A DNA stretch of 63,323 bases, filler included, from Rhabdomonas costata (Eukaryota): assembly GCA_019059605.1 (NCBI GenBank). It is 39 parts of 39 records of this genome, joined end to end, with 100 filler letters (N's around TTAATTAATTAA, not from the genome) between each part and the next. Parts side by side here need not be neighbours in the genome. Positions count along the whole stretch, not along the records: positions 6,510 to 8,035 come from JAHMHO010013788.1; positions 8,136 to 9,662 come from JAHMHO010013789.1; 37 more parts are not named here. The stretch is one strand, 5' to 3'. The notes beneath the pieces were generated by a model that was given only the letters and a program-made list of their open reading frames with translations, was not told the DNA's origin and searched no databases. Positions 6,410 to 63,323 of this stretch are shown here, piece by piece; within the stretch, counting starts at the first letter, position 1, and the number at the start of each line of letters is the position of its first letter. The position numbers and the translations under genes are program-made.

Positions 6410-8185
6410 NNNNNNNNNNNNNNNNNNNNNNNNNNNNNNNNNNNNNNNNNNNNTTAATTAATTAANNNNNNNNNNNNNNNNNNNNNNNNNNNNNNNNNNN
6501 NNNNNNNNNGTGGTTGGGGTCCCCGCGGCAGATTATTGGCCTTGCTGTTTTCTTGCTTGTTCCTGCTGGGTTTTTCCTGCTGAGGTTTGCAGAGAATGGC
6601 GACGCAGTCGTCGTTTCGTCGAAATCCAGAACATCTTTCAATTCCACTGATTTCCAGGGATATGCGTCCCCACCGTGGTGATGGAATAGTTGTTTGTGGA
6701 GTTGGAGTTCGGTCGTCCCCAGGCACCAGACTTGACTTTTGCTGACAAGGAAGCCGCTGTTATTTCCCCCGCCTCAAGGATTCACGTTTTGGAATTTGAG
6801 TATTTGAATATCGCTTTGATTATTTGAATGACACACATGCACTATCCCGGCACACAGAGGAATACGAAGTATCACGGTAGTCCACACTCCTTGGTGCACT
6901 GTAACAGTAAGAGTTAACATGGCTGTTAAGTGGAGGTAGGCATCGCTCCCTAACCCTATGAAACTTGCTGCCTATGAAACTCCCGGCCCTGATTGACTTG
7001 GTGGTGCCTCGCGTGAGAGTGTGAGCAGTGAACAATGGGGATCCCCTGCTGTGGTGGCAGGCTGCTTGAGCTTGGGGTGGTGGTGGTGCGGCTGCTGTGC
7101 GGGACCACTGCGGCGAAGCTCCACCGTGCGCTGCTGGAGGGCTGCCAGGGGGGCACCCCCGGCGCCGTAATGGTGGAGTGCCCGCTGTGCTGCGACATGG
7201 GCCTCACGGTGCTTCAGGCCCTGAGGCGCACTCGCTTGGCCCGCCCGCGCCGATTCCCGTTCCAGGCACTTACATGGACGCATACACACGGGGAAGTAGG
7301 CTGGTGGGTACAAGAACACAGCAGAAGCGCAGAAGGCGGGCAACACTTCTGTAGCACCAAGAGATCAACCAAACCCATGCCCATAACATACGCACGTGGA
7401 CGCACACGAGCTTTCAGAGAGATCAGCAAAGAAGTGAAGACACGGAAAGGGGAAACGCAGTTTTGCAACTTGAAAGCTGAAACGCAAATTGACACCTTCT
7501 GGACCACAGGTCTGGAGCTGCCTTCTCCCGCCATCTTTTCGTCACACATGGCCCTGCTATCCGGCGCTGAAAGGGCGCATCCCCCATTCACCCAGCGCGA
7601 GCCGTCCGATCAAATGGGGAGCCATCAGTGGTTGGCATTTTTCTGCATCTTCTCAGGATCAGCTTGTTGACAGCCGAATCCGTCGCAAGCTCCCGGATTT
7701 TCTCAACGACTATGACCTCGATCCGCTTTTGGAAAAGGTTCTGTTGCGCCGCTCTGTCCACCCAGTGTTGCTCCCTCCGTTTGTCAGATCGATAGAAAAG
7801 TTCCGTTGTTCGCCATACACACATACCGTGTGCTCCTTGTTGTTGATGGTGTACTGTGTTGGAAAGGAGTAATGTGAACTGTGAGGCTTCTGAGGGCTTC
7901 TTCGTTGACTGGTATTTTTTTTTAGAGATAGTTATGCATTTGAATGTTAGGCGAGTAATCCGCGCAATCCCGTTTGCACTGAATGGCCCGGCTCCTTTTT
8001 CGCGCGTCGCTCAGATGTGCTTCGGGCTCAACCCGNNNNNNNNNNNNNNNNNNNNNNNNNNNNNNNNNNNNNNNNNNNNTTAATTAATTAANNNNNNNNN
8101 NNNNNNNNNNNNNNNNNNNNNNNNNNNNNNNNNNNGTTTTGTGGTGATTGGATAAACTGAAAGTTGATGAAACTTTCACTTTTTC

Positions 8186-8932
8186 GTGTATCAATTGACA
8201 CTGAGAGCCAAGCTACTGAGAAATTGTCCCATTGTCCATAGCTTACACTTGAGGTACCTTTTCATTCAAGGGTTCGAGGCAGACGGGCAGGCAGAGCTGA
8301 TGACGAAAAAGCTTTTGAGTTTGCAGATAAACGTTGACGCGGCCTGGGGGTTTCACAGGAAACCCAGAGCGCCACCCAAGGTCATTTTTATCGCGCCGCC
8401 AGCAGAGAAAGCGACAGCGAAACCGACCGGAATGGAGCTGGATTCCATGAGATAAGGCAACTCGCCGTTTGGAGGGGCGCGGTACTTTGACCAACCACCC
8501 CGCTCGAATTTAATCGCACGGTTCAGAGAGTGCGGGTGTGGTCAGTGCTAGCTCGAGGGGCCTCAGGGATGTCGGTTGACGGGGGTTTGGACGCCATGAC
8601 GTCAGGAACATTGCTGGGGGCGACGGCGTCGCCTCCCAGAGGGGTGCTGTTTGTGGAGACGCGCAACGTGGAGATGCGCAAGCCAACGCAGTTAGGACCC
8701 CGTCGCCTTTATTAGGTTGGAAGGGAGAACCCCGTTTGCACAATCATCCTTGGACGACGCTGTGCAGCGGGGGGCGCTGAGGTGTTTTTACTGCGGGTCG
8801 CCAAACCATTTCATGAATAATTGCCCTGAAATCAGGTCGAGAGCTGGGCAGTCCGCACCAACGACATTGTCAGGGAGTGCACAGTTTCAGGACTGGGGAA
8901 CTGTCCCCATCAAGAAGGAAAACCCAAACTGA
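8186..8932 (+). pseudogene. Ty3/Gypsy-like Gag, C-terminal part
   Basis: YLFIQGF, PTGMELD (8423-8443) and the CX2CX4HX4C knuckle CFYCGSPNHFMNNC (8783-8824) lie in one frame, with stops between them. Confidence 0.75.
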
Positions 8933-8962
8933 AGAGGGTTGGAATGGAGGCGACTCCAACCC
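8923..8962 (+). promoter_or_regulatory. -1 programmed ribosomal frameshift signal
   Basis: C CCA AAC (X XXY YYZ, in the gag frame) directly before the gag TGA, a 6-nt spacer, then an 8-bp stem GGGTTGGA (8936-8943)/TCCAACCC (8955-8962). The -1 frame is open to 9336. Confidence 0.7.
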
Positions 8963-9309
8963 GCGACATTCAGCCCAAGATTATTGACCGAGAGTTTGTG
9001 CCCGAGAGTGTTGGAAGTTTGTTTTCAGTCGAGCAAGAAGGAAAGTGTGGGGGCAATTTGTCCTTGCCGTGGTTTTTGGATCAAGCGGTACGCCAGAGAT
9101 ACAAGGAGGAATGTTGTGTGGCGAGCAAGTCTGCGGTCGAAGAAAGTGATGAAGAAGGTGACCTGGAAGAAGAGCTGAGCAGTGGAAAGACCACTCCAGT
9201 GCACACTCCGCGAGAAGCGAGTCAGCCAACACTGGGTGGGTCAAGGACACTCTCGGACTTCGATCAGGTGCAAGCGCGTCAGTACGTGAACCCAGAGCAG
9301 AGGCAAGAC

Positions 9310-9650
9310 TTGGAAGAGACAGCATTATCTTTGTAGCAGGCCGTTTACCGCTGGTCGACTCGAAAGCAAATTCAGCCAAACTCGGTGGTTCTGTACTGAA
9401 GGAAACCAGGTTCGCACCAGACGCAGAGCTTGTGCAGGTGAGGTTGATTGAGCCGCGGGTGCCGCAGGTTACAGAGGTTTGCTTGTACGCAAATCATCCG
9501 TGGAGTTTAATCCCGTTGGTGCTGATGAAGATTTGCAGAGATAAAGCGCGAGTGTTGTTAGTTACGCCAAATTGGACTGACGCACCTTGGTTTCCTCTGT
9601 TGGAGGAAATGACAGTGCGGAGGTGGTTGAGAGGAGGTAATCTTTTGTTT
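9310..9650 (+). pseudogene. Dam-like N6-adenine DNA methyltransferase domain (DIRS-MT-like), degenerate
   Basis: LYANHPWSLIPLVLMKICRDKARVLLVTPNWTDAPWFPLL matches the YANPPW..I..VL.KI....A..ILV.P.W....W.P.L pattern. NHPW (9492-9503) is one base change from NPPW. The upstream part is broken by a stop and a frameshift. Confidence 0.75.
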
Positions 9651-9762
9651 GACCAACACACANNNNNNNNNNNNNNNNNNNNNNNNNNNNNNNNNNNNNN
9701 NNNNNNTTAATTAATTAANNNNNNNNNNNNNNNNNNNNNNNNNNNNNNNNNNNNNNNNNNNN

Positions 9763-10258
9763 GGTGGTGGGAGAGGGCAGCGATTCTCGGCGGTACCTCC
9801 TTCTGCACGACCTGTTGCCCGGGGTGGACCTGGATGCCGTTGTCGGCGACGCCCTGGCCGACCCGAACAAGTCCAAGGGCCACTTGGAGGGCACCCTGTA
9901 TGACTTCGAGGTCTCGGAAGAGACTGTGGCTCGCAACAACACTGTGACGACGGCGGAGTTTCAGACCTCCACGGCGACCGCGACCGTGGTCGCCCCAGGG
10001 GCCTTTGCGGAGGTTCTGCTGAGCTGCCCCCACGGCGGGAAGGACGCCACCCTGCGGGCCTTCCGCACAGGCAACTTCTCCACGCACTTCGTGATTGAGA
10101 ACGCGGTGGTGGCATACCTGGCCCCACTGAGCTGCTTTCCCGCCGAGGATGAAGTACTGTTTCCACCTCTGTCGCGTTTTCTGGTGCGCGAGGTGGAGAG
10201 CAATTTCCCAAGGAACCCGGACGAGGTAACTATGGTGTACCTGAGCCCTCAGGCTTAG
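9763..10258 (+). CDS. C-terminal part of an R-S-E clade (NAD:arginine-type) ADP-ribosyltransferase
   Basis: LAPLSCFPAEDEVLFPPLSRFLV carries the catalytic E-x-E (10145-10153), with an upstream FQTST resembling the STS motif. Strong GC3 bias; ends at TAG. 5' end cut by the contig edge. Confidence 0.75.
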
Positions 10259-35786: not shown

Positions 35787-36444
35787 TGTTGTGGTTAAGA
35801 TCCGTGAGCACGATCTCACGGTGGGCGTTGACGAGCTCACGGATCTTAACCTCGCACCAATTCCAGGCTTCAGTCCTTGCTCCGATCCGAGCTCCCCATC
35901 GGCAGTTCGGGATTTCGGCTACCTAGTGCACGTCCACCCTGAGCACAAGACTTTCCTTCAGCGAGCCCATGCTCACGTTCGTATCCACGTTCTTCGCCTG
36001 GTGCCTGGGTGCCAAACCGACGTCAGCGTGCTGGAGGCCGCCATGCTTCAGTATCAGGGCGTCATTGTCAAGTCTTATGGATCGGGAAACGCCCCGAAGA
36101 CCGTGGTGGATCTGCTGATTCGCCTCCGTGGTGAGTTTTTCATTCCTGTGGCCTGTGTCTCGGAGTGCCTTCACGGAGGAACCGACCTCGTGTATGGAGT
36201 GGCGATCCCGCCGTCGGCGGCTGTTCCTTGCTCTGACATGACACTTCCTGCGGCGTATACTCGAATGCACTTGGCCGTCTCCTTCGAGGCTTTCGTGAAC
36301 ACCTCGAATTCCTCACCACTGGAGCTTCGGAATCGAGATATCCGAGATAGGATTGAGCGAAACATGAGAATCTGTACATTGGACTGTTTTACCAGGCCAG
36401 ATGACGAAGAATCCCTTTGCAGGCAAGTTGCAACACATTCCTGA
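35787..36444 (+). CDS. L-asparaginase (type I-like), C-terminal domain
   Basis: VLRLVPG, GVIVKSYGSGNAP, VSECLHG and SDMTLPAAYTRM match asparaginase C-domain motifs (G.GN.P, SQC..G, DMT.EAA..KL). Confidence 0.85.
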
Positions 36445-62619: not shown

Positions 62620-63323
62620 CTACGGGTTCGGTGACGATGATGGTGGCGACCATTTCGCTTTGCGAAGCACAGGAGGAGCCTCCGAGTTATCAGAGAGAAG
62701 AACGTGACTAACATTACTGACTTTGTAATTATACCCGATGCCCCCGCGAAGAAAACCGAAAAAAGGTAGCGCAGAACTGAGGTCAACGTCGGCAAACGAA
62801 GGGAGGTGCTGGGCGGTTAAAGGCGAAAGAAAATCCGTTTCGATGTTCCATAAATTAATCGTGTTGTCCGCACTGCCACTGACAACGTGCTTCCCGTCTG
62901 ATGCGACAGCCACGGAGCATATTGGAGAAATGTGTCCATTGAGGGTGCGCTCCTCTTTGCCCGTTTTCCGGGTCCACACCTTGATGGTGTTGTCCTCGCT
63001 GCCACTGACAATGTGCTTTCCGTCAGAAGTCACAGCCAAGGCAGATACGGCAGCAGTGTGTCCCTCAAGGGTGCGCTCTTCCTTCCCAGTGTCCAGATTC
63101 CACACCTTGATATTGTTGTCGGCGCTTCCACTGACAATACGCTTGCCGCAGGACGTCACTGCTACTGCGTTGACGGAACCTATGCGCCCCCTTAGCGTGC
63201 GCACCTCCTTCCCGGTATCCAGGTTCCACACTTGGATTGTCTTGTCCGCACTGCTGCTGACCACGTGTTTTCCGTCGGAACTCAGGGCCAAGGCAAAGAC
63301 AGCCGCAGTGTATCCCTCCAAAA
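62620..63323 (-). CDS. WD40-repeat protein, C-terminal part, with four highly similar 42-aa repeats
   Basis: GH..AV.A.AVTSDGKHIVSGS.D.TIKVWNLDTGKEERTL with a 126-nt period; intronless. Confidence 0.95.
   Translation of the reverse strand, partial: LEGYTAAVFALALSSDGKHVVSSSADKTIQVWNLDTGKEVRTLRGRIGSVNAVAVTSCGKRIVSGSADNNIKVWNLDTGKEERTLEGHTAAVSALAVTSDGKHIVSGSEDNTIKVWTRKTGKEERTLNGHISPICSVAVASDGKHVVSGSADNTINLWNIETDFLSPLTAQHLPSFADVDLSSALPFFGFLRGGIGYNYKVSNVSHVLLSDNSEAPPVLRKAKWSPPSSSPNP

Follow-up and report, generated by a model that had tools for sequence, protein, structure and literature searches.

A decayed contig of Rhabdomonas costata as the probable remnant of an internally deleted Ty3/Gypsy-type retrotransposon with a Dam-like domain

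The DNA analysed here, called the window below, is a stretch of 63,323 nucleotides from Rhabdomonas costata (GenBank assembly GCA_019059605.1). It consists of 39 separate contigs of 1,524-1,536 bases each, with spacers of N around TTAATTAATTAA between them. One contig carries what appear to be the remains of a retroelement: the end of a gag gene, a gag-pol frameshift site, the beginning of pol, and part of a domain related to the Dam-type adenine methyltransferases. This contig, at positions 8136-9662, is exactly one complete contig of 1,527 bases with a GC content of 0.53. An initial annotation of the window had read it as a Gypsy-like retroelement with an adenine methyltransferase domain at the start of pol, and had noted that all parts lie on one strand within 1.5 kb. 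Because the feature fills the complete contig, that distance merely reflects contig size, and no 3' extension is possible. The features and their coordinates are collected in Table 1.

Table 1. Features of the retroelement contig at 8136-9662 (positions count along the window).
Feature	Position	Strand	Remarks
Gag remnant, end of capsid-like region through PTGMELD	8171..8452	+	Frame starting 8138; weak collinear gag matches
Disrupted gag stretch, PTGMELD to knuckle	8453..8695	+	Stops in gag frame
CCHC zinc knuckle CFYCGSPNHFMNNC, end of gag	8783..8824	+	Pfam zf-CCHC, E 9.5e-6, 25.9 bits (cut-off 20.8)
-1 frameshift site: C CCA AAC (8923-8929), TGA (8930-8932), 8-bp stem	8923..8962	+	In register
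Acidic open -1 frame, presumed N-terminal pre-protease part of pol	8923..9333	+	137 codons open
Open frame upstream of Dam half, no detectable homology	9162..9473	+	Includes LVDSKA (9351-9368)
C-terminal half of Dam-like (DIRS/DAM-LTR type) domain, NPPW changed to NHPW	9474..9656	+	Runs to contig end

The open stretch at the start of the gag part terminates in KPTGMELDSMR, with PTGMELD at 8423-8443. In BLASTP searches it gives two collinear matches to the gag protein of the full-length metagenome locus L004 (E 0.003 and 0.002), just past the Retrotrans_gag region, and a match to that of locus L014 (E 0.062). With a gag profile built from the relatives, this frame ranks first of 234 frames of the window (E 0.028, 7.3 bits), in two collinear pieces. 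No Pfam gag profile matches the contig. The putative gag similarity is weak, yet collinear and consistent. By eye, the 5' end of the contig (FVYQLTL...PIVHSLHL) could also be taken for the SH3 end of an integrase; a profile made from seven relatives finds no match in that frame, and the reading was dropped because the gag match explains the stretch better.

Four stops (8453, 8549, 8597 and 8693) interrupt the gag frame between PTGMELD and the zinc knuckle. The frame starting 8137 is open across 8491-8712, and the gag frame is open again from 8696. No homologues of the disrupted stretch were found. The knuckle is the only Pfam match on the contig and follows PTGMELD at a spacing of 120 codons. 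The same layout recurs in the relatives: the gag of L004 has PTAMQLD and its first knuckle 89 codons later, and that of L014 has TPMQIDA and its first knuckle about 118 codons later. A P..M.(L/I)D motif followed by a knuckle is common to the contig and two independent full-length families, at a spacing of 89-120 codons.

The slippery heptamer lies in the register of the gag frame, immediately 5' of the gag stop. An 8-bp stem, formed by GGGUUGGA (8936-8943) and UCCAACCC (8955-8962), starts 6 nt past the heptamer. It is the only notable element of the local fold; over 91 nt, the fold at this site is not better than that of shuffled sequences (z -0.69; 52 of 200 shuffles at least as stable). Full-length relatives also have in-register heptamers, C CCA AAA in L004 and L006 and G GGA AAA in L012 and L014; these precede the gag stop by 19-22 nt, and pol is in the -1 frame. 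The Gag with PTGMELD and a CCHC knuckle, the -1 frameshift signal and the decay of this copy had all been described in the initial annotation, and each of them is borne out.

Behind the heptamer the -1 frame is open and acidic, in agreement with the acidic linker of about 130 residues noted earlier. It has no Pfam match, and none of the 31 candidate proteins (92-294 residues) is a homologue at E <= 0.01; longer proteins were not searched. Full-length relatives have a low-complexity region of 240-460 residues between gag and protease. In the frame starting 8136, no stop occurs between 9162 and the contig end (167 codons), and this open part carries LYANHPWSLIPLVLMKICRDKARVLLVTPNWTDAPWFPLLEEMTV. 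The junction of the deletion or rearrangement proposed below must fall in 9162-9473.

Within this part, the motif LVDSKA resembles the retropepsin active-site motif LVDSGA. The comparison was made post hoc, and the motif shape occurs four times in the 118,890 residues of the six-frame translated window. A protease hidden in the linker was considered and rejected: no Pfam protease is matched at E <= 10, tblastn with two environmental proteins in which a Dam-like domain follows a protease (P0088 and P0053, described below) returns noise, and a protease profile scores -3.9 bits on the contig. The earlier statement that no protease or reverse transcriptase (RT) lies between gag and the Dam-like stretch holds for the whole contig, where neither gives a Pfam match even at E <= 10. 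RVT_1, RNase H, DDE integrase and Phage_integrase likewise have no Pfam match on the contig, and tblastn with the pol proteins of L004 and L014 matches the Dam half only.

The Dam-like stretch is read in the frame starting 8136. It includes LYANHPW...VTPNWTDAPWFPLL (9483-9599), with NHPW at 9492-9503 in the place of the catalytic NPPW. A phmmer search with the translation of 9342-9662 against 1.84 billion representative proteins gives 226 relatives at E <= 1e-3, three of them at E <= 1e-10. Among the 150 of these that were listed, the motif reads NPPW in 69, NPPF in 16, NHPW in three and none of these in 62. The best-scoring stretches start at query residues 40-52 in most of the matches listed. 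The contig itself does not match Pfam Dam (PF05869) in any open piece, even at E <= 10, so the assignment to Dam is transitive, through the relatives. Of the 150, 43 were scanned against Pfam; 24 match Dam at E <= 0.01 and eight exceed the cut-off of 28.1 bits (P0045 reaches 36.9 bits and P0034 33 bits). Five of the 14 closest sequences match Dam at E <= 0.1.

What the contig carries is the C-terminal half of the domain alone. A profile of 208 positions, built from 92 relatives with the full domain, matches the contig at positions 96 to 146/149 only (E 4.7e-29). It finds nothing in the other five frames; the N-terminal half, recognisable by DLFA and NAF..W, is missing from all six. The 44 residues upstream of the half-domain score 8.1 bits, where shuffled versions average 8.25 and 228 of 500 equal or exceed the real sequence; for a control relative, P0009, the same comparison gives 50.6 against 10.3. 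The two halves also differ in identity to the closest long relative, P0157. The C-terminal half has 36 of 57 residues identical (63%), a value exceeded by P0001 alone among 20 sequences, and the N-terminal half has 6 of 26 aligned residues identical with an alignment score of 7, no more than noise. All 19 relatives compared conserve the N-terminal half (44-76% identity, scores 52-191) like the C-terminal half (38-75%). By BLASTP, 39 of 61 residues are identical between the contig and P0157 (64%, E 6e-25), and homology begins exactly at EVCLYAN, base 9474. As judged from these alignments, the start of homology is a sharp breakpoint and not the product of gradual decay.

Two other explanations of the missing half were rejected. 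A diverged N-terminal half was suggested by five of the 150 listed matches, whose alignments reach query residues 13-28; neither the shuffle test nor the half-by-half identities give a signal for it. A Dam domain split by an insertion was suggested by a second NHPW at 8742-8754. The 13-nt repeat concerned is one of 11 families of chance size, and the stretch scores -2.1 bits with the Dam profile. The adenine methyltransferase domain of the initial annotation is retained as a Dam-like C-terminal half with 226 relatives; the N-terminal half and a direct match to Pfam Dam are lacking. An active N6-adenine methyltransferase is not indicated, as the domain is incomplete, scores no gathering-level match and has NHPW for NPP(Y/F/W). 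The contig would encode neither a polymerase nor a methyltransferase, and is predicted to have no function of its own.

The order of domains in relatives was examined by scanning metagenome contigs with an alignment of the closest relatives (38 loci; 28 open reading frames (ORFs) from the longer loci were annotated with Pfam). In L004 and L006 the gag ORF has Retrotrans_gag and CCHC knuckles, and it is overlapped by a pol ORF in the -1 frame. This pol ORF, of 1,980 residues, encodes protease, RVT_1, RNase H, Integrase_H2C2, rve and SH3_Tf2-1. Then come a spacer of about 365 residues, rich in proline and acidic residues, and the Dam-like domain, which makes up the last 145 or so residues of pol. 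L012, L014, L011 and L007 are built like L004, with Dam at the end of pol. The closest locus, L001 (65% identity over the shared half), has the end of an integrase, an acidic spacer of about 200 residues and a complete Dam-like domain. P0157, of 875 residues and 64% identity, was the single return of a word-index search for longer proteins; it has Integrase_H2C2, rve, SH3_Tf2-1, an acidic spacer and Dam at its C-terminal end. P0021 and P0041 have the integrase SH3 domain and then Dam. In the full-length relatives the knuckles are at least 5.5 kb upstream of Dam, against 0.7 kb on the contig.

Other arrangements occur among the matches. A DIRS-type architecture, RVT_1-RNase H-Dam and sometimes an additional ORF with Phage_integrase, is found in L018, L020, L027, P0044 and others. 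P0053, a public metagenome protein, has a protease and then Dam. P0088, an environmental protein of 655 residues encoded in one ORF, has gag, a CCHC knuckle at residue 257, an aspartyl protease at 348-433 and a Dam-like domain at about 498-620. Among 156 proteins, P0088 alone has a knuckle within about 300 residues of Dam. Dam placed directly after a protease in a few environmental proteins is a side observation which may be worth more than the contig.

L004 is itself unusual in structure. On this metagenome contig of 17,949 bases the gag/pol-Dam unit is tandemly repeated with a period of 10,221 bases and 100% identity over 7,728 bases. Possible causes are a tandem array, a circular form and an assembly artefact; within one L004 unit, no separate pair of long terminal repeats (LTRs) was seen.

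A tree of the shared Dam half comprises 36 rows and 62 columns, and leaves out P0104 and P0074, which have no anchor motif. Its resolution is poor, and it has a single well-supported split (91/97). On one side of this split are all seven integrase-linked rows, the contig and ten rows of unknown context; on the other are 16 of the 17 rows labelled DIRS-type. That label means RT and/or RNase H before Dam, and one labelled row, P0122, has Dam and then a tyrosine recombinase. P0053 falls on the DIRS side, and P0088 is on a long branch.

We consider it probable, at roughly 60%, that the contig represents a dead copy, with an internal deletion, of a Ty3/Gypsy-type DAM-LTR retrotransposon, that is, an LTR retrotransposon outside the DIRS group that carries a Dam domain. 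The parent would be of the Gypsy type and not DIRS, because the tree of the Dam half places the contig with the integrase-linked rows. The RT, RNase H and DDE integrase of Ty3/Gypsy elements are absent from the contig and present in its closest relatives; it would therefore belong to the DAM-LTRs as a deleted remnant. Judging from the full-length relatives, the intact parent would have had Gag in the first frame, ending in CCHC knuckles, and a -1 ribosomal slip on a heptamer just 5' of the gag stop would have yielded Gag-Pol. Its pol would have read, in order, low-complexity leader, protease, RT, RNase H, DDE integrase, long acidic or proline-rich spacer, and Dam-like domain. On the contig, the end of gag, the frameshift site and some 140-180 codons of the pol leader would be joined to the second half of Dam. 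Protease, RT, RNase H, integrase, spacer and the first half of Dam would have been lost between the joined parts. The right boundary of the internal deletion would be 9474, and the left boundary would fall within 9162-9473. Later lesions would include the four gag stops, a shift of frame from the leader to the Dam half, and the change of NPPW to NHPW. A single deletion probably made the copy, for example by template switching during reverse transcription or by a genomic deletion, and the parent presumably lay in the same genome.

This interpretation keeps part of the initial annotation and changes its centre. A Ty3/Gypsy-like retroelement remnant is supported. The proposed Gag-methyltransferase-Pol lineage is not upheld: the Dam domain is truncated at its 5' side near 9474, and the domain is the last in pol in the closest relatives of known architecture. 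RT and RNase H between gag and the methyltransferase had been expected to reveal a mere deleted DIRS element; the complete relatives do have that order, and the parent they point to is a Gypsy-type DAM-LTR, not DIRS. Nor is the presence of Dam in such an element without precedent, since Dam domains in non-DIRS LTR retrotransposons are described in a preprint (Fernandez-Moreno et al., May 2026; bioRxiv 10.64898/2026.05.21.726589).

Several points weigh against an internal deletion. On the contig, a true deletion looks the same as a join, made in assembly, between two parts of a repeated element. Both ends of the 1,527-base contig fall inside the element, and LTRs, primer-binding site and polypurine tract are beyond its reach. 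No second related contig was found in the window by blastn and tblastx of the contig or by tblastn with the gag and pol proteins of relatives. The gag assignment rests on a generic knuckle and weak similarities (E 0.002-0.06). As the pol leader and the Dam half do not share a frame, a single lesion would not suffice. P0088, with gag knuckle, protease and Dam within about 300 residues, shows that a short distance from gag to Dam exists in nature. Wider searches had little to add: no relative of the contig was found in the viral_contigs collection, and solved structures gave one match, which at E 0.45 is not meaningful.

The first alternative is an assembly artefact, in which a short-read assembler joined the end of gag and the end of Dam from repeated elements that are separate in reality. 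Repeats are a typical place for false assembly joins. The assembly is extremely fragmented, as the sizes of the 39 contigs show, and homology breaks sharply near 9474. However, no repeat or low-complexity tract marks the junction region, the repeats inside the contig are only pairs of chance size (12-19 nt), and the 167-codon frame starting 8136 is open across the junction. We regard an artefact as fairly unlikely.

A genuine lineage with Dam early in pol (gag, frameshift, possibly protease, Dam, then RT and the rest), of which the contig would be a decayed copy, is unlikely. It draws on P0088, which has knuckle, protease and Dam in one ORF, on the protease and Dam of P0053, and on LVDSKA, a motif shape that is rare in the window and resembles a protease active site. 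However, such a lineage still needs a deletion, as the contig lacks the first half of Dam and most of the protease. The closest relatives, at 64-65% identity, carry Dam after the integrase, while P0088 is just 48% identical over the shared half and sits on its long branch, and P0053 belongs to the DIRS side; the protease searches described above are also negative. In its strict form, that the proximity of gag and Dam is ancestral to a Gypsy-type lineage with Dam at the front of pol and owes nothing to deletion, the contig being a damaged copy, the proposal is quite improbable, although P0088 has its domains in such an order. Were it true, Dam would be delivered in every Gag-Pol molecule, ahead of the replication enzymes.

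Two unrelated elements side by side, with a 5'-truncated Dam fragment beside, or interrupted by, another gag-bearing retroelement, would account for the lack of detectable relation between the sequence upstream of 9474 and the spacers of Dam-bearing relatives; the knuckle, moreover, is generic. However, gag part and Dam part share a strand and follow one another as they would in one element, the contig agrees with Dam-bearing full-length relatives in its gag layout and its heptamer, and the two parts have no LTR-like repeat between them. This explanation is very unlikely.

Least probable is an internally deleted DIRS1-like tyrosine-recombinase retrotransposon: elements of that kind carry RT-RNase H-methyltransferase in pol (PMC3266345) and RVT_1 is found in 13 of the 43 relatives scanned, nine of which also match Dam at E <= 0.01, but the Dam half of the contig groups with integrase-linked (LTR-type) rows apart from 16 of 17 DIRS-type rows, identity reaches only 40-44% with the best DIRS-type loci and 64-65% with the LTR-type relatives, and no examined DIRS-type locus has a CCHC knuckle in gag.

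The other contigs of the window hold a mixture of sequences. The contig at 4882-6409 is AT-rich (GC content 0.33, against about 0.49-0.58 in other contigs of the window). Its minus-strand ORF at 5818-6408 matches Helicase_C (E 2.2e-6) and Herpes_ori_bp (E 1.3e-4, 20.7 bits, cut-off 20). It resembles part of a virus-type origin-binding helicase, and may be foreign to the rest of the window or an integrated viral piece. The contig at 19520-21045 is a single open frame throughout (508 codons) and has no Pfam match. On the contig neighbouring the retroelement, the open frame at 9764-10255 has a sub-threshold match to NAD:arginine ADP-ribosyltransferase (ART; E 4.2e-4, 20.2 bits, cut-off 22.3). Two ordinary eukaryote-type gene fragments encode WD40 repeats (62620-63321, minus strand; E 1.3e-42) and an asparaginase C-terminal domain (35788-36444; E 6.1e-12).

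Three known systems resemble the contig in part. Internally deleted non-autonomous derivatives of LTR retrotransposons keep the gag-proximal and 3'-proximal parts of pol and lack the enzymatic core. The contig is like them in this, as it retains the gag-proximal and 3'-proximal pol parts without the core. The phage and bacterial N-6-adenine-methyltransferases of Pfam PF05869 are represented through the relatives of the contig's domain, which match the profile; the contig itself does not, having only the part from the NPP motif onward, with that motif mutated. DIRS1-like elements have gag, a tyrosine recombinase and a pol composed of RT, RNase H and methyltransferase, with the Dam-like domain after RT and RNase H (PMC3266345). 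Their methyltransferase is of the same Dam-like family, with NPP(W/F)...P.W...PW(F/Y) motifs. Unlike them, the contig has no tyrosine recombinase, RT or RNase H, has its Dam half across the 91/97 split from 16 of 17 DIRS-type rows, and possesses a knuckle-bearing gag and a -1 frameshift site as in Gypsy-type relatives.

The closest system is the DAM-LTRs. In the preprint by Fernandez-Moreno et al. (bioRxiv 10.64898/2026.05.21.726589), their Dam-like domain is described as prokaryote-derived and as occurring in five lineages, with at least four transfers from DIRS to Ty3/Gypsy-like elements. The Asn-Pro-Pro triplet is nearly invariant there, and orphan Dam fragments are mostly degenerate remnants of transposable elements. 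N6-methyladenine (6mA) is enriched on DAM-LTR copies, and Dam proteins of eukaryotic transposable elements expressed in E. coli added no 6mA. The text, in the part available, makes no mention of gag, of protease, or of Dam directly after a protease, nor does it describe an element with Dam at the front of pol. No further papers on Dam domains in LTR elements turned up among those listed in full-text literature searches.

A gag with a CCHC knuckle and a gag-pol frameshift, features expected of a DAM-LTR, are both found on the contig. The gag layout and in-register heptamer which it has in common with full-length relatives could aid the annotation of gag-pol junctions in DAM-LTRs. The case also calls for caution: on 1.5-kb contigs, internal deletions or assembly joins can mimic new domain orders. 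Compared with an intact DAM-LTR, the contig lacks protease, RT, RNase H, integrase and the first half of Dam, and its catalytic Asn-Pro-Pro reads Asn-His-Pro. Its gag knuckle and -1 frameshift resemble those of L004 and L014, and its Dam half groups with integrase-linked Dam domains and is 64-65% identical to relatives with the order integrase, spacer, Dam. The contig agrees with the 2026 preprint, in which most orphan Dam fragments are regarded as degenerate pieces of transposons. On this comparison the contig is probably a decayed and shortened representative of a kind of element described only recently, and adds one degenerate Dam-bearing Gypsy remnant to it.

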